Assembly: GCA_023267375.1 (NCBI GenBank)
Contig: JAHFNJ010000002.1
Coordinates: 89,634 to 127,585 of the forward strand
From: Candidatus Nomurabacteria bacterium
Lineage (GTDB): Bacteria; Patescibacteriota; Minisyncoccia; Phycocordibacterales; UBA9973
Length of the DNA: 37,952 nucleotides
Direction of reading: 5' to 3'
Positions 3,370-34,049 of the stretch are shown here, one piece after another (within the stretch, counting starts at the first letter, position 1; the number at the start of each line of letters is the position of its first letter). The notes under the pieces were generated by a model. The model did no database searches. It had not been told where the DNA came from and was given only the letters and a program-made list of their open reading frames with translations. A program made the translations under genes and the position numbers.

Positions 3370-3398
3370 TTGACATATATCTTTATTTATGATACTCT
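3370..3398 (+). promoter_or_regulatory. sigma70-type promoter of lipoprotein gene
   Basis: TTGACA-17 nt-TACTCT with extended TG. Confidence 0.7.
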
Positions 3399-3530
3399 AT
3401 AGGCAGATTTATAGAAAAGTGGTTTTGGGGCGAATAGCCTTTATTTTGTTTTCTCCTCAAAACTGCTTTTCTATAAAGAAGTAGGGGTACACGCCGTCCC
3501 TTAACGGTTCACTAAAAACAAATAACTCTA

Positions 3531-4178
3531 ATGAAAAAGATCAATTCTCTCTTAGTGCTTGGCGTATTATTCGCCTCATGCACTTTCATGTCATGCAAGA
3601 AGGACATCAACGTAGATCCTGCATCTTTAAGCGAAACTACCGCAGACCTTGGAAGCACTGCTCGCATGGCAGCAGATGAGCTGCAGAGCTCCTGTTCCAA
3701 TGTGTACGAAGTGTTGACCCAGGAAATACAGGGGACAACTTTGGTGGAAGCCGTCGGCGGTGTCAACAAAACACAGTACGCGGTGAGCTCCATATTGATG
3801 CAACGGTGTGCTGGCTTATCTGACACAGCAAAGACCAAATGGACGGAAGTGGCCAAAAGCACACCAATGAAAGCCTGCACTGGCTGGATTAATGTGTACT
3901 TAACTGATGTGACGCTCATACCTGCCGGTACTATCTGCAGAGTGAAAGCGAAGCTCGTCAACAACGGCACCACGTACCTGAGTCTTCCCAGCATGCTTAC
4001 AATGCCGTCCTTGCGTTTAAGCAGCGGGGCAACATCGGATCTGGCTACTTTGATCGCAAATGCCAAGGAAAAAGCTGCCAAGAAGTTTGGTATTTCTGCA
4101 GATGACATCCAGGTCGTGTATTATGATTCCAGAAATGGAAACTCTGGACAGCATCCTGTATGGAAGCCGGTTAACTAA
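3531..4178 (+). CDS. Hypothetical lipoprotein with Bacteroidota-style signal (SC-KKD)
   Basis: MKK + hydrophobic core + FMS-C-KKD; own promoter and terminator; mature domain not recognised. Confidence 0.75.
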   Translation: MKKINSLLVLGVLFASCTFMSCKKDINVDPASLSETTADLGSTARMAADELQSSCSNVYEVLTQEIQGTTLVEAVGGVNKTQYAVSSILMQRCAGLSDTAKTKWTEVAKSTPMKACTGWINVYLTDVTLIPAGTICRVKAKLVNNGTTYLSLPSMLTMPSLRLSSGATSDLATLIANAKEKAAKKFGISADDIQVVYYDSRNGNSGQHPVWKPVN

Positions 4179-4208
4179 AACGGTGGCCTGAATTTTTCAT
4201 TAAAATAG

Positions 4209-4242
4209 AAAGTCCCGTAAACCTTGGTTTGCGGGACTTTTT
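4209..4242 (+). terminator. Intrinsic terminator
   Basis: aaagtcccgtaaacc-tt-ggtttgcgggacttttt hairpin plus U-tract. Confidence 0.85.
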
Positions 4243-4284
4243 GATTATAAATTAAGGGTTTTTTAGCTATTTGTGACTCCCGGC

Positions 4285-4321
4285 TATAATCGCTTGACTT
4301 CTCTTTTCCTATGAGTATAAT
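4285..4321 (+). promoter_or_regulatory. Tandem rRNA promoters
   Basis: TATAAT at 4285; TTGACT(4294)-16 nt-TATAAT(4316) upstream of the hairpin-rich 16S leader. Confidence 0.7.
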
Positions 4322-4570
4322 GGTTGGACGCCTTATATTTTCGACCATATAGTGGATATATGGGGCTGTTTGTTTCATTGAAAAATGAATAAAAATAATC
4401 ACTGCCCTGACGGTGAGTCAGGGCAATCTCCGGTCTTCATCGGCCGGAGAGCAAATGTGCCTGTGCTTTGTAAAAGAAGTGCAGGCACGCAAGAAACCAG
4501 TTTTTAGTAATTTCTTTGAGTATTCGTTTCAAACTCTATTAACAAGAATCACGAGATAAAAAAGTGAATT

Positions 4571-6349
4571 TATTCTATTTTTTGTTTTGTTCCGTTCTCA
4601 AAAAGAATTTGTGCTTTAAGCATAGATTTTTAAGTAGAGTTTGATCCTAGCTCAGGATGAACGCTGGCGGCGTGGATAAGGCATGCAAGTCGAACGGATC
4701 TTTTATTTCCCGAGAATGAGATTATATCAAGTTCAAAGGTCGTTTAAGATTAGTGGCGAACGAGGTAGTAACACGTGGGTATTTCCCCTTTAGTCGCGAA
4801 CAACACACCGAAAGGTGTGCTAATACGCGATGGTCTCGCAAGAGTAAAGATTTATCGCTAAAGGAAAAGCCTGCGGGATATCAGCTAGTTGGCAGTGTAA
4901 AAGACTACCAAGGCTATGACGTCTAGGGGAGCTGAGAGGCTGACCCCCACCGATGGGACTGAGACACGGCCCATACACCTACGGGTGGCTGCAGTCGAGA
5001 ATCTTCCACAATGGACGAAAGTCTGATGGAGCGACGCCGCGTGATTGATGAAGCACTTCGGTGCGTAAAGATCTTTTATGAGGGAAAAAGTTTATTGATG
5101 GTACCTCATGAATAAGGGGCTTCTAATCTCGTGCCAGCAGAAGCGGTAATACGAGAGCCTCAAGCGTTATCCGGAATTACTGGGCGTAAAGGGTGCGTAG
5201 GTGGTGATGTTAGTCGTTTGTGAAATCTCGGAGCTTAACTTCGAGCCCGCAAGCGAAACGGCATTACTTGAGAGTGTGAGGGGTCTGTGGAACTCATGGT
5301 GTAGGGGTGAAATCCGTTGATATCATGGGGAACACCAAAAGCGAAGGCAACAGACTGGCACATATCTGACACTCAAGCACGAAAGCGTGGGTAGCGAATG
5401 GGATTAGATACCCCAGTAGTCCACGCCCTAAACGATGATCTCTCGGTTTTCGGAGTATCGACCCTCTGAGAGCCTAAGCTAACGCGTTAAGAGATCCGCC
5501 TGGGAAGTACGACCGCAAGGTTAAAACTCAAAGGAATAGACGGGGACTTGCACAAGCAGTGGATTATGTGGTTTAATTCGATGGTAAACGAAGAACCTTA
5601 CCAGGGTTTGAAACCTACGTGAAAGCTCTAAGAAACTAGAGCCCTCGCAAGACTAGTAGGCAGGTGATGCATGGCCGTCGTCAGTTCGTGGTTTGAATTG
5701 TTCCCTTAAGTGGGGTAACGAACGCAACCCTCGTCGTGTGTTACAAGTGTCACACGAGACCGCCCAGAACAAAGCGCACGAAGCAATTAGTGCTTCGCGA
5801 ATTTTGTTCTGGGAGGAAGGAGAGGATGACGCCAGGTCAGCATGTCCCTCTGATATCCTGGGCTACACACATAATACAATGGCTACTACAACAGGTCGCG
5901 ACGGGGTAACCCTGAGCCAATCCTTAGAAAAGTAGCCCCAGTTCGGATTGAGGTCTGCAACTCGACCTCATGAAGTTGGAATTGCTAGTAATCGCGGGTC
6001 AGATATACCGCGGTGAATACGTTCTCAAGTCTTGTACTCACCGCCCGTCAAGTCAAGGGAGCCGGGAATACCCGAAATCTCTGCATTAGCAGGGCCTAAG
6101 GTAAGCTCGGTGACAGGGACTAAGTCGTAACAAGGCACGGGTAGCGGAAGCTGCTCGTGGAATAATTCAATTTGAAAAACGGTTTCTATCGTCCTTCGGG
6201 ATATAGAAACCAGTGAGTCGATATTTTGTGCCTCAATTGAGCACAAAATGCCTGCCATCACAGGATAAAAGGATGGGATTGTGAAAATCCAAAATTCATG
6301 ACATTCGGCAAAGACCGATAGAGACGGAACAAAACAAAGAATAGAAATA
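4571..6349 (+). repeat. Inverted repeat flanking 16S (pre-rRNA processing stem): 4571-4599 pairs with 6321-6349
   Basis: tattctattttttgttttgttccgttctc versus gagacggaacaaaacaaagaatagaaata, near-perfect complement. Confidence 0.85.
4629..6170 (+). rRNA. rrs: 16S rRNA (Parcubacteria-like), ends approximate
   Basis: AGAGTTTGATCCTAGCTCAG (4636), CCTACGGGTGGCTGCAG, GTGCCAGCAGAAGCGGTAA, ATTAGATACCC, AAACTCAAAGGAATAGACGG, AAGTCGTAACAAGG and helix 45 with GGAA loop. Confidence 0.99.
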
Positions 6350-32602: not shown

Positions 32603-32691
32603 AGATACACCAGTATACAGTATCGAGTAATAGGGATAAAGTATCGAAACTGGCCTATTTATGGCAGAATTTTTTTGCTACTATAACACCT

Positions 32692-33291
32692 ATGAAGATA
32701 GTGATTGGTATTGATGAAGTCGGACGGGGACCCCTGGCAGGACCGGTGTGTGTTTGTGCATTTGAATTACGAATTACGGATGATGAATTAAAAATTGAAA
32801 AAGGGCAATTAAAATTAAAAGACTCAAAGAAGCTTTCACAAAAACAGCGTGAAGCATGGATGACAATTATCGAAACATGGCAGAAAGAAGGGAAGTGTGA
32901 TTTTGCCGTATCATATACAGAGGCGGAAGAAATTGATCGTATCGGTTTATCACAAGCTATAAAAAATACACTGAGCTCTTCCTTGCTAAAACTAGCCGAT
33001 CCAGAAGTTGATCCGCTTATTCTTCTTGATGGTGGGCTGTATGCACCAGAAATTTTTAAAAATCAAAAAACAATTATTAAGGGCGATGAAAAAGAGCCAG
33101 CTATTTCGTTTGCCTCAATTGTTGCCAAGGTTCATCGTGATCAGTTGATGGCTGAATATGCAAAACAGTATCCTGAATATGGTTTCGAATCACATGTTGG
33201 CTACGGGACGAAAGCTCACTATGCAGCTATTAAAAAACATGGACTCACACCGCTTCATCGACGGAGCTTTTTAAAGAATCTTGTGAAATAA
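32692..33291 (+). CDS. rnhB: Ribonuclease HII
   Basis: GIDEVGRGPLAGPV, DSKKL, LDG, KGD, ASIVAKV.RD, GYGT, HRRSF. Confidence 0.97.
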   Translation: MKIVIGIDEVGRGPLAGPVCVCAFELRITDDELKIEKGQLKLKDSKKLSQKQREAWMTIIETWQKEGKCDFAVSYTEAEEIDRIGLSQAIKNTLSSSLLKLADPEVDPLILLDGGLYAPEIFKNQKTIIKGDEKEPAISFASIVAKVHRDQLMAEYAKQYPEYGFESHVGYGTKAHYAAIKKHGLTPLHRRSFLKNLVK

Positions 33292-33304
33292 AAAAAGAAA
33301 GCTA

Positions 33305-33333
33305 TTGACTTGTGTACTTATTCATTATATTAT
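33305..33333 (+). promoter_or_regulatory. sigma70-type promoter
   Basis: TTGACT-17 nt-TATTAT. Confidence 0.7.
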
Positions 33334-33422
33334 GATGGTAAATAACGATTTATTTACATTCTATCGTCAAATCAACGTCTATATAAATAAAGTCACTAAT
33401 CTCTTAAAAAAAAGAATAAAAA

Positions 33423-33998
33423 ATGAAAAAGAAAGTTTTAAGTATTATCTTAGTACTGCTTTTTGCGGTAATTGGGCGGATTTTTGCTCAAAGTCATGAC
33501 AGAGGAAGTATTGTTTACTCGGTATATACCGGGACTAGCTTTAGGGCTGGTGGAACATCTCTTGGGACACAACAGATCGGCTTAGGTATAAGCAAGAATG
33601 TTGCAAAGGGTGTATTAAATCTTGGTTTGAGTTATACGACCAAGGATGTATATGTTCAAAAATTTGATAGCACCCTTAATGATTTTCCAAAAGTACCGAT
33701 GAGCTCTGCTCTTGCAAATATCGGTGTAAACATTACCGCTGACAGGTCTGGTTTATTCCAAGGAGTTGCCATTAATGCTCTTGGTGGCGTAGGTTTTACC
33801 GAGAGAGACATTTTTCCGGTTATTTTAGGGGCAGGCATTCAAGTAAATACTTGCTACTGGAATAAATTCGGAAGTGACGAAATTGGTCATTTCAAACTTG
33901 GTTTGTTTTTTGGAATCGACTATCGTGCAGTTCTTGAATCAGGGAATAAGAGTTTTTCCGGGTTTATGAAAGGCGGGATGAACATCTTCATCTTATGA
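33423..33998 (+). CDS. Secreted hypothetical protein resembling a small outer-membrane beta-barrel
   Basis: MKKK..IFA|Q signal peptide; amphipathic Gly/aromatic strands (IGLGIS, LNLGLSY, IGVNIT, LGAGIQV, LGLFFGIDY, GFMKGGMNIF). Confidence 0.65.
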   Translation: MKKKVLSIILVLLFAVIGRIFAQSHDRGSIVYSVYTGTSFRAGGTSLGTQQIGLGISKNVAKGVLNLGLSYTTKDVYVQKFDSTLNDFPKVPMSSALANIGVNITADRSGLFQGVAINALGGVGFTERDIFPVILGAGIQVNTCYWNKFGSDEIGHFKLGLFFGIDYRAVLESGNKSFSGFMKGGMNIFIL

Positions 33999-34017
33999 AG
34001 TAAAAGCAGCTAAAAAC

Positions 34018-34049
34018 AAAAAAGGCTTCTGCATGGCAGGAGCCTTTTT
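34018..34049. terminator. Bidirectional terminator
   Basis: aaaaaggcttctgc-atg-gcaggagccttttt. Confidence 0.85.

Follow-up and report, generated by a model that had tools for sequence, protein, structure and literature searches.

What do sorting signals of the Bacteroidota style signify in a CPR bacterium, where they hint at a partner or a gene donor? The question is raised by three genes within the window (the whole stretch of 37,952 nt that was analysed), which belongs to a genome of 848 kb and 94% completeness. The original prediction took their products for a lipoprotein, a T9SS cargo protein and an outer-membrane barrel that may be meant for sorting by a Bacteroidota host or may mimic its surface, and the open reading frames of all three were verified:

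3531 to 4178, forward strand: P0001, 215 aa, an orphan apart from its lipobox-like signal peptide (Cys17, Cys22)
10406 to 12046, forward strand: P0002, 546 aa, with a signal peptide (1-29), a beta-rich passenger and a T9SS type-A C-terminal domain (CTD)
33423 to 33998, forward strand: P0003, 191 aa, with a signal peptide ending A22↓Q23 and a predicted 8-stranded membrane-type beta-barrel

Three neighbouring features provide the context:

4629 to 6172, forward strand: 16S rRNA gene, with no adjoining 23S gene and no CCTCC anti-Shine-Dalgarno tail
9856 to 10226, forward strand: RNase P RNA, just upstream of P0002
13405 to 15987, forward strand: SecA, the motor that would drive export of these proteins, which also served to place the organism

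SecA is closest to that of Parcubacteria/Paceibacteria MAGs (60-66% identity to Adlerbacteria, Paceibacteria and other CPR MAGs), which backs the CPR origin claimed at the outset. An artefact, i.e., the mis-assembly or mis-binning of Bacteroidota fragments into CPR MAGs, is extremely improbable. The genes are located inside a 127-kb contig, among the 16S gene, RNase P RNA, SecA, DnaE and RNase HII; their promoters are of the genome's own type, and the composition is that of the genome, as evident from the GC (0.423 vs 0.422) and GC3 (0.387 vs 0.385) of 21 genes of the secreted class described below as compared to the genome mean. P0001 lies at the top of the genome in GC3 (0.546). A chimeric assembly, of which the original prediction had warned, is contradicted by independent Logan contigs bridging the junctions of P0001 and P0002 at even depth (3 samples, one study), and CTDs are likewise present in G006, G056 and G489, genomes that each consist of a single contig. 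Contamination could be present in one relative, G015 (1.3 Mb), in which short contigs hold both CTD genes and an M28 peptidase gene.

Each gene is flanked by its own signals for transcription:

3367 to 3398, forward strand: promoter of P0001, CTA plus TTGACA (3370-3375), 17-nt spacer and TG-extended TACTCT, scoring 9/12 in a script scan
10317 to 10348, forward strand: promoter of P0002, CTA plus TTGACT (10320-10325), 17-nt spacer and TG-extended TAATGT
33302 to 33333, forward strand: promoter of P0003, CTA plus TTGACT, 17-nt spacer and TATTAT, scoring 10/12
about 4210 to 4243, forward strand: terminator hairpin 3' of P0001, AAGTCCCG...CGGGACTT followed by a T run; read by eye, its loop of more than 8 nt having escaped the hairpin scan
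about 12071 to 12098, forward strand: terminator 3' of P0002, AAAAGTCCCGC-acgc-GCGGGACTTTTTT, read from the sequence
34019 to 34049, forward strand: terminator 3' of P0003, with a 14-bp stem, between P0003 and a convergent M1 peptidase gene

The -35/-10 pairs are sigma-70-like, and the -10 box lies 132, 57 and 89 nt ahead of the ATG in P0001, P0002 and P0003, respectively. The expectation of a separate leader (57-132 nt) and terminator for each gene was thus borne out, whereas the description of the core genes as near-leaderless applies to only 42 of the 154 other genes with a promoter-like site. The proposed common -35 context was recovered as CTATTGAC, which precedes all three genes (3367, 10317 and 33302) and recurs at 28559; these four matches in the window compare with about one expected, and at least four were obtained in 3 of 100 shuffles. 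Genome-wide, however, the motif is not enriched (15 copies in 848 kb). The suggestion that the mRNAs themselves are meant for a host is disfavoured by TTGACA/TAnnnT promoters like those of the rest of the genome, and by codon usage and GC at the genome mean. Judged from these sequence features, P0001, P0002 and P0003 are genuine genes, each presumably transcribed on its own, in a Paceibacteria-type (CPR) bacterium from groundwater.

The CTD predicted for P0002 is confirmed by both profile and fold:

11828 to 12043, forward strand: CTD of P0002 (aa 475-546), YPNP...G...G-x-Y...K-x-F-I-I-Q, TIGR04183

Residues 475-546 score 47.7 bits against TIGR04183 (cut-off 23) and 36.4 bits against PF18962 (cut-off 27). 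The domain is modelled with 7 strands, for which Foldseek returns mirolase, PorZ and the SprA/PorV-bound CTDs, and the CTD profile of the family matches solved T9SS CTDs with E about 7e-13 to 1e-12. The signal peptide, read by eye, ends ...TSTASA↓S, so that P0002 has Ser rather than Gln at +1. Its passenger is related to none of 44 other CTD proteins, and neither P0001 nor P0002 has detectable homologues outside their own genome.

The signal peptide of P0003 (MKKKVLSIILVLLFAVIGRIFA↓Q) and its barrel agree with what had been proposed. The model, built on 5 sequences, displays a signal helix and eight strands of 13-19 residues (pLDDT 77.4), with one strand face 43/62 apolar and the opposite one 35/62 G/S/T/N/Q. 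The top Foldseek matches are only small 8-stranded barrels (Ail, OmpA, NspA, OmpX and OmpW), with weak E values (best 8.7e-4), and the protein-atlas neighbours are diderm proteins along with the DUF2715, TraO and OMP_b-brl clusters. Profile searches gave no Pfam or NCBIfam match, and hence no Pfam barrel family. Homologues occur in 12 of 151 genomes of the family, with two further matches among 1.8 billion representatives, and all 11 with an intact N-terminus end their signal in A↓Q. The C-terminus of P0003 is NIFIL, and the aromatic residue that usually closes such barrels is missing from the family as a whole.

The case of P0001 is different. Its N-terminus (MKKINSLLVLGVLFASCTFMSCKKD...) carries a lipobox-like triplet before each of Cys17 and Cys22; profile searches found no family, no homologue was seen in 40 relatives (0/40), and a wider search matched only P0001 itself. 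Its protein-atlas score is 0.84, the atlas's own model having a pLDDT of 0.34. C-K-K-D, which had been read as a lipoprotein export signal, does not fit the Bacteroidota signal K-(D/E)2 as described by Lauber et al. (2016, PMC5080379). As P0001 is an orphan and its motif differs from that signal, the lipoprotein-export part of the earlier reading appears weak.

P0001-P0003 belong to a larger Bacteroidota-type secreted class, marked by a short MKK-type signal peptide that usually ends A↓Q; some of its members end in a T9SS type-A CTD, and others are predicted to fold into an 8-stranded membrane-type barrel. The description 'three solitary genes' is an understatement, since a crude scan flags about 20 open reading frames of the genome with the same style of N-terminus; the signal-peptide calls come from our own crude rules and readings by eye, rather than from SignalP. 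CTDs above the cut-off are present in 107 of 151 genomes and 41 of 45 genera of the same family, single-contig genomes included, as compared to 22 of 401 genomes (5%) in a sample of the phylum and 1 of 16 other families of the order. CTD genes are thus concentrated in this single family. Part of the class has been passed on vertically. Gln at +1, after A, S or G, is found in 35 of 41 CTD proteins of the relatives. According to Bochtler et al. (2018, PMC5837995), this Q-rule is typical of Bacteroidetes, with a mean of 71% Gln at +1. AxA-type ends are seen in 48 of 244 flagged N-termini of the genome, by eye on longer signals of the CPR style, which limits the rule to a subclass.

One could argue that the signals are inert baggage: T9SS cargo genes would transfer easily into a cell devoid of an outer membrane, from which a Sec signal by itself suffices for exit, and CTD and Gln+1 would be without a role on ordinary extracellular enzymes or adhesins that need no Bacteroidota partner. 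Repeated uptake from different donors fits the sporadic CTDs elsewhere in Patescibacteria, which are of another subtype and follow A↓Q in only 9 of 20 proteins; Gln+1 has been lost from P0002, or was never present, and one CTD remnant is out of frame, which implies that some copies decay. A useless domain of 70 residues should, however, vanish from genomes of 0.5-0.9 Mb, and CTD genes are kept throughout most genera of the family. Nine proteins from 7 genera form an orthogroup that can be aligned over its full length; in it, the CTD is no more divergent than the passenger (22.7 and 23.2% identity, respectively), and Gln+1 and the G and Y of the CTD G-x-Y motif are among the 14 invariant columns of 398 ungapped ones. 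As far as these alignments tell, the orthogroup conserves Gln+1 together with the core motifs of the CTD, and the A↓Q end is kept by the barrel family. Inert baggage is unlikely.

The premise that the outer-envelope machinery is missing in this CPR genome was strengthened. SecA and signal peptidase I are present, whereas searches for BamA, SprA, PorV, PorU, Lgt, LspA and glutaminyl cyclase detected none of them, and the genome thus shows no sign of a T9SS or BAM of its own. Omp85 was detected in 0 of 61 family genomes and in 7 of 14 control genomes (diderm controls), Lgt in 0 of 41 with 10 controls positive, Glu_cyclase_2 in 0 of 41 and Peptidase_M28 in 1 of 41; the result for SprA_N (0/61) is weak, the search being positive in no control genome either. 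Searches of the sequences thus revealed no candidate machinery for reading the T9SS CTD, Gln+1 or outer-membrane barrel signals. An overlooked outer layer, served by very divergent BAM-like or T9SS-like machinery that reads the signals at home, gains some room from the uncontrolled SprA_N search and from many giant reading frames without a Pfam family (e.g. 19643-26218). It is very improbable in view of the controlled Omp85 and Lgt results, the missing PorV and PorU, and a membrane-helix anchor on the native solute-binding protein, which fits a single-membrane cell. Cryo-EM of CPR cells is not known to reveal an outer membrane either. The original interpretation is partly supported: a set of Bacteroidota-type signals is kept family-wide without detected readers; its lipoprotein part appears weak, its mRNA variant is disfavoured, and the notion of three solitary genes is too narrow.

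Taken together, the class probably, though by no means certainly, represents old acquisitions from Bacteroidota-type diderms, which selection has maintained and which leave the cell through its own Sec system to act where two cells meet. It is only the known range of the signals that points to Bacteroidota as donor of the transferred genes. The cell would make the proteins itself, using sigma-70 promoters and mRNAs that have a leader but no Shine-Dalgarno sequence, and would export them through its own SecA/SecYEG and signal peptidase I, which would place them directly on or outside a cell that has no outer membrane. Lipidation of P0001 by its own cell would be impossible; probably, its signal either stays uncleaved as an anchor or is cut by signal peptidase I. 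Proteins of the class most likely act where the cell touches a diderm partner, probably one of the Bacteroidota. There, CTD proteins may serve as adhesin or enzyme modules and the barrel may be capable of inserting into the outer membrane of another cell. Against this, CTDs occur in 5% of other Patescibacteria, so that the domain may serve a T9SS-independent purpose that has nothing to do with a partner.

A bolder proposal, that of the original prediction, is that the Sec-exported proteins pass into the envelope of a Bacteroidota cell to which the symbiont is attached, and that the glutaminyl cyclase, BAM and T9SS of this host cyclise them, insert them, or secrete and anchor them. The surface of the host would thereby be decorated or perforated by proteins that the symbiont encodes. 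The conservation of the signals in the absence of detected readers, with a CTD as conserved as the passenger, is in keeping with this, as is the match of the CTD profile to CTDs bound to the SprA/PorV translocon (8glk, 8glj). Papers on Porphyromonas phages also appear to discuss the Q-rule, which may suggest that parasites can carry host-type signals. There is, however, no known route from outside the cell into the diderm periplasm, the compartment in which T9SS, BAM and the cyclase operate, and nothing here demonstrates contact with Bacteroidota. The lipobox argument fails because Lgt and LspA act in the producer's own membrane, where their substrates sit; Gln+1 is missing in P0002, and the barrel family is without the C-terminal aromatic residue. 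Such host-directed sorting is decidedly unlikely, and acquisition followed by selection for a role at the cell surface is preferred.

Each protein can be compared with known systems. P0001 resembles bacterial lipoproteins in its positively charged N-terminus, hydrophobic core and Cys after A-S or M-S, and differs from them in a genome without detected Lgt and LspA, and from the Bacteroidota export signal in its C-K-K-D. P0003, from a tiny family unmatched in Pfam/NCBIfam, ends in NIFIL rather than an aromatic residue in a genome without detected BamA, and yet shares with small 8-stranded outer-membrane barrels (OmpX/Ail, OmpA N-domain, NspA and OmpW; OMP_b-brl clan) its size, eight long antiparallel strands, and one apolar and one G/S/T/N/Q face. 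The short MKK-type signals ending A↓Q (35/41 CTD proteins and 11/11 barrels) resemble the Bacteroidetes Q-rule substrates of signal peptidase I (71% on average in Bacteroidetes, PMC5837995), except that the rule holds here on a subclass and glutaminyl cyclase was not found. P0002 differs from the T9SS type-A cargo of Bacteroidota (RgpB, mirolase, F. johnsoniae NucA, FspA and RemA CTDs) in its passenger without detectable relatives, its presumably single-membrane CPR cell, and the failure to find SprA, PorV, PorU, BamA and glutaminyl cyclase in its genome or family. It shares with that cargo the N-terminal Sec signal, a variable passenger and, at the C-terminus, an Ig-like domain of 7 strands that carries the YPNP, G, G-x-Y and K-x-x-I/V motifs, and most CTD proteins of its relatives obey the Q-rule as well.

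The genome in which the three ORFs reside (G000; 848 kb in 14 contigs, completeness 94.4%, contamination 0.55%; relatives 0.4-1.3 Mb) is accepted as belonging to the CPR/Patescibacteria, and there to the Paceibacteria (Parcubacteria) type, from its SecA identity and small size. The best SecA matches (66-53% identical) are MAGs labelled Saccharibacteria (a doubtful label), Adlerbacteria, Paceibacteria, Wildermuthbacteria and Nealsonbacteria, the last four of which are members of Parcubacteria; the identity to all other phyla is ~50% or less. Since SecA is closest to CPR MAGs, the premise of a CPR genome in the original prediction is upheld. 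The features of the window needed for what follows are:

3531-4178, P0001, ORF with lipobox-like N-terminus
4629-6172, lone 16S rRNA gene
9856-10226, RNase P RNA
10406-12046, P0002, ORF with C-terminal T9SS type-A domain (CTD)
33423-33998, P0003, ORF with signal peptide and predicted barrel

The three ORFs are interspersed among these RNA genes and those of SecA, type IV pilus PilC, DnaE, RNase HII, M1 peptidase, glutamate dehydrogenase and an SBP_bac_5 binding protein. The runs listed with the stretch include three DNA runs, all of one study and labelled groundwater metagenome, and no RNA run. In one of them (X1, which may be the source sample), an 8100-nt contig covers 2900-4655 and a 9846-nt contig covers 9981-13500, both at an even depth of ~10; the contigs of this run leave 8918-9980 uncovered. 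Shorter contigs of two further samples run across the 5' junctions of P0001 and P0002, the two genes taken into the junction check. GC and GC3 of 21 secreted-protein genes of the same kind equal the genome means. Chimeric assembly at P0001 and P0002 is thus not seen, as evident from the bridged junctions in three samples and the composition. No CTD lies beside SecA in 80 SecA loci, most of them from outside the family. Within the type IV pilus cluster of the window (PilC 16059-17231; N_methyl pseudopilins 26221-27854) lie a 641-aa protein with LVIVD repeats (17694-19619) and a borderline BACON_2 match (25.7 bits, cut-off 25) and, adjoining it, a 2191-aa ORF without Pfam family (19643-26218). 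Typical carriers of BACON domains are Bacteroidota and the phages of this phylum.

A crude scan of 846 greedy ORFs of G000 flagged 244 signal- or anchor-like N-termini, the signal sites being read by eye or regex and not by SignalP. Among these, 48 have AxA-type ends (by eye, on long CPR-style signals), 29 have [ASGT]-Q by regex, of which we judged ~13 to be convincing as short MKK...A|Q signals, and 9 are lipobox-like, 7 of them convincingly so. The three ORFs, considered solitary earlier, are members of a class of ~20-21 short-signal (MKK-type) genes, which are spread across eight contigs. A weak or real Pfam match was obtained for 5 of the 18 class members scanned (Por_Secre_tail, Gly_rich_2, Amidase_2, TIMP-like and a sub-threshold DUF6520). 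The Amidase_2 (peptidoglycan amidase), TIMP-like and Gly_rich_2 domains sit among the members at C12:111707-112750, C12:146020-146577 and C5:54729-55622; by its domain, the secreted Amidase_2 protein could act on the cell wall of a partner.

Each of P0001, P0002 and P0003 displays a TTGAC(A/T)-17-TAnnnT promoter preceded by CTA, an A-rich leader (132, 57 and 89 nt, respectively, from the -10 box to ATG) and its own terminator hairpin. The same type of promoter precedes 18 of the 20 class genes having at least 70 nt upstream. A -10 box within 15 nt of the ATG was recorded in 1/18 class genes as compared to 42/154 other genes, so the description of the core genes as near-leaderless holds for just this minority. 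As read from their boxes, the promoters of the three genes and of the class are native in type, which argues against mRNAs or genes intended for use by a Bacteroidota cell; Bacteroidota promoters differ (TAnnTTTG). No Rfam family matched the leaders at the gathering threshold.

Absence of a Shine-Dalgarno (SD) motif is ruled out as a class feature: the whole genome lacks such motifs, with an SD-like word upstream of 25/474 other ATG genes against 0/21 class genes, and the 3' end of the 16S rRNA (window 6120-6200) reads ...GGAAGCTGCTCGTGGAATAATTCAATTTG, without the CCTCC anti-Shine-Dalgarno. The -10 box lies 6-12 nt before the ATG in many genes of G000, and, judging from these motifs, the organism appears to translate without SD sites and in part from leaderless mRNAs. 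Likewise, CTATTGAC is discarded as a class-specific signature, with 15 copies in the genome; about 10 of the 15 are promoter-like, and 7-8 of those precede, by reading, secreted-protein genes of both signal classes, so that it may represent a common upstream element. At 28559, CTATTGAC occurs in a promoter context for the fourth time in the window, upstream of a small secreted protein (MKKNKFVFLRSVVMLPLLGTTLMG..., 28716-29333) with no Pfam match. The terminators after P0001 (4210-4243) and P0002 (12071-12098) have a common stem core, AAGTCCCG...CGGGACTT, which could be due to chance or to shared origin.

P0002 (546 aa) consists of a signal peptide, a beta-rich passenger and a CTD in its C-terminal 72 residues (aa 475-546), which score 47.7 bits with TIGR04183 (cut-off 23) and 36.4 bits with PF18962 (cut-off 27). 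The model of this tail displays seven strands in an Ig-like beta-sandwich (pLDDT 80-90 within the domain). Its best fold matches by Foldseek are DUF3244, mirolase CTD (TM 0.65-0.70) and PorZ, followed by the 8glk, 8gl8, 8gl6 and 8glj CTDs (8glk_D, TM 0.62/0.76). A profile of nine family CTDs matches the CTDs in solved complexes of the translocon of F. johnsoniae (8glk_D 7.2e-13, 8glj_D 1.2e-12), besides those of mirolase and gingipain. The C-terminus of P0002 is thus, by the curated HMM cut-offs and the predicted fold, a T9SS type-A CTD, in agreement with the original assignment. A word-based search for homologues, in which the 8000 best candidates of near length were scored, returned only the query, and a comparison with 44 further CTD proteins from the family revealed no homologue of the passenger.

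A second CTD copy of G000 is located at C8:33900-34106. On contig C5, an out-of-frame CTD remnant (116872-117057, minus strand; ...ILGQLVYQGPV...LPNGFYIISFAGRSDGQILFIK*; E 0.02 with the family HMM) adjoins an ORF of 439 aa (117000-118319) with an MKK...FG|Q signal. From this arrangement, a frameshift appears to have severed the CTD from a cargo gene, and the remnant, a counter-example to the conservation described below, shows that some CTD copies decay.

P0003 (191 aa) carries a signal peptide ending in FA|Q, as read by eye and regex. An exhaustive phmmer search against 1.8 billion representatives yielded two relatives, P0006 (1.2e-11) and P0008 (4.6e-4), and one spurious repeat protein; a word-based search returned the query alone, no Pfam or NCBIfam family matched at E ≤ 0.1, and by profile the family of P0003 occurs in 12/151 family genomes. 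The AlphaFold model, built on a five-sequence alignment (pLDDT 77.4), shows eight strands of 13-19 residues, and the top of its Foldseek list contains outer-membrane barrels only (Ail at 8.7e-4, then OmpA, NspA, OmpX, OmpW, the OprF N-domain and designed transmembrane barrels; TM-scores 0.4-0.6). One face of the strands is apolar (43/62 residues) and the other is rich in G/S/T/N/Q (35/62) with few charges, a pattern that favours a membrane rather than a soluble barrel. The language-model neighbours, taken as a lead only, are diderm hypothetical proteins and DUF2715, TraO and OMP_b-brl clusters. With the model resting on five aligned sequences, P0003 is predicted with moderate confidence to be an eight-stranded membrane-type barrel, and the earlier beta-barrel reading is retained at that strength. 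Outer-membrane barrels usually carry a C-terminal aromatic residue as beta-signal; this was not seen in the P0003 family, whose members end in NIFIL, IILKD, LIVD and similar.

P0001 (215 aa) has two cysteines behind lipobox-like triplets, F-A-S-C17 and F-M-S-C22, with an unusual F at -3, and its GC3 (0.546) is the highest in G000. No homologue was found in 40 relatives, a word-based search returned the protein itself alone, and protein-atlas scores stayed below 0.85. The C-K-K-D motif had been proposed as a Bacteroidota lipoprotein export signal; its sequence after the Cys (C-K-K-D-I-N-V-D) does not fit the signal published as K-(D/E)2 or Q-A-(D/E)2 right after Cys (PMC5080379). An antisense ORF (3512-4108), which shares third-codon positions with P0001, is rejected as a real gene, as it belongs to no family and the plus-strand promoter and terminator favour P0001. 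The 132-nt leader (3399-3530) contains a small GC hairpin (3427-3441) followed by a T run, TATTTTGTTT; by this terminator-like shape it may be an attenuator.

SecA and signal peptidase I are present in G000. The sorting machinery that would read the signals was looked for in G000 and in incomplete samples of family genomes, and the negatives are hence given as not found rather than absent. BamA/Omp85 (PF01103) was found in neither G000 nor 61 family genomes, with 7/14 control genomes matched, all diderms; SprA_N gave the same result (0 in G000, 0/61), a weak negative as no control genome matched. PorV was not found in G000 and PorU was represented by a 16-bit fragment only. With SprA/Sov (in the weak search), PorV and PorU not found, P0002 is not classed as a substrate of an own-cell T9SS. 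Lgt (PF01790) was not detected in G000 or in 41 family genomes (controls matched in 10 genomes), nor LspA (PF01252) in G000, and P0001 is accordingly not classed as an Lgt/LspA lipoprotein. Of the glutaminyl cyclases, PF05096 (Glu_cyclase_2) was found in neither G000 nor 41 family genomes, and the cyclase fold PF04389 (Peptidase_M28) in 1/41 family genomes and not in G000. The lack of BAM and T9SS stated originally is thus borne out by the searches for Omp85, SprA_N (weakly), PorV and PorU. The one genome with M28 matches, the odd 1.3-Mb G015, has 8 CTD matches besides these (contigs C10 and C14), and some of its CTD/M28 matches, on 5-20 kb contigs, may be contamination from a diderm.

CTDs over the TIGR04183 cut-off occur in 107/151 genomes and 41/45 genera of the family, including the single-contig genomes G006, G056 and G489, as compared to 1/16 genomes in other families of the same order and 22/401 in a phylum sample. 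For the signal ends, 43 CTD ORFs of relatives were taken (42 from the family and one from a neighbouring family), of which 41 have a readable N-terminus. A Gln directly after the signal-peptidase-I site (Q+1) follows [A/S/G] in 35 of these 41 (36 with one P-Q counted), A|Q is present in all 11 barrel homologues with intact N-terminus, and the C8 protein ends its signal in FA|Q. Gln at +1 thus stands for P0003, the C8 protein and most of the relatives' CTD proteins and fails for P0002, where the site, by eye, reads SA|S. In Bacteroidetes, Q at +1 has a mean of 71%, as compared to mostly <9% in Chlorobi and typically <20% in Chlamydiae and Spirochaetes (PMC5837995).

Among 990 pairs of 45 family CTD proteins, 44 have passenger homology and 105 share the CTD alone. 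A nine-protein orthogroup from seven genera, which includes the C8 protein, aligns end-to-end at 22-32% identity, with mean pairwise identities of 0.33 for the signal peptide, 0.232 for the passenger and 0.227 for the CTD. Only 14 of its 398 ungapped columns are invariant: M1, K2 and Q+1, in the passenger eight Gly and two Asp, and in the CTD the G and Y of G-x-Y. As judged from this alignment, the orthogroup has descended vertically, under constraint on precisely the features for which no reader was found. Neutral baggage, in which CTD and Q+1 have no role of their own, accounts for the scattered CTDs in the rest of the phylum but fits poorly with such conservation in 0.5-0.9-Mb genomes. The 20 CTD ORFs of other Patescibacteria families (L160-L179) have a different tail subtype (...G-I-Y-F-Y-x-L...K-K-M-x-L-L-K), with A|Q in 9/20. 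This suggests, from tail subtype and A|Q frequency, that the CTDs of other CPR families are separate acquisitions from other diderm lineages. Ignavibacteria-like and other FCB lineages commonly have the YFY.L...KKMxLLK subtype; if this holds, the diderm donors differed from one CPR lineage to another.

The conservation in the orthogroup is compatible with a putative route in which the exported proteins are handed to an attached Bacteroidota cell, whose cyclase, BAM and T9SS process, insert and display them. We consider this route improbable: no way is known by which the proteins would get into the periplasm of the host, and it cannot work for the P0001 lipobox. If true, a whole Paceibacteria family would use the envelope-sorting code of another phylum, and the symbiont would write its own proteins into the outer membrane and surface of its host. 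A milder version would have the conserved features, CTD and Q+1, mark proteins that dock onto parts of the host envelope and thereby define host range. The best-supported account of the intact genes, the identity of their signals, the machinery not found, the family-wide spread and the conservation is acquisition followed by own use: the class would have been acquired from Bacteroidota-type diderms, retained and diversified within one Paceibacteria family, expressed and exported through Sec by the symbiont itself, and would act extracellularly, probably where the symbiont touches a diderm partner. Hardly any host is known for Paceibacteria, and family-wide selected proteins with Bacteroidota-typical signals provide a concrete, testable prediction of host or donor.

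The CTD and the Q-rule can evidently persist long where their known readers are not found, which points either to a second, unknown function or to reading across cell boundaries. No description of T9SS-type CTDs in CPR was found among the papers listed in searches of the literature, those on TIGR04183, Por_Secre_tail and PF18962 included. The domains and rules are known, and what appears new, judged against these papers, is their systematic, conserved presence in a CPR family without detected T9SS, BAM or glutaminyl cyclase.

As compared to Bacteroidetes Q-rule substrates, the relatives' CTD proteins share Q+1 (35/41) and differ in that no glutaminyl cyclase was found in G000, nor PF05096 in 41 family genomes. 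P0002 resembles T9SS substrates in CTD sequence and predicted fold, whereas no translocon was found in its genome. P0001 may resemble bacterial lipoproteins in its Cys behind a lipobox-like triplet and differs from them in that Lgt and LspA were not found. A barrel from a cell without detected BamA is a natural candidate for insertion into a foreign membrane. While P0003 differs from OmpX/OmpA-N/OmpW-like barrels in having no curated-family match, no aromatic C-terminus and no BamA found in G000, it is like them in its predicted eight antiparallel strands and apolar outer face.
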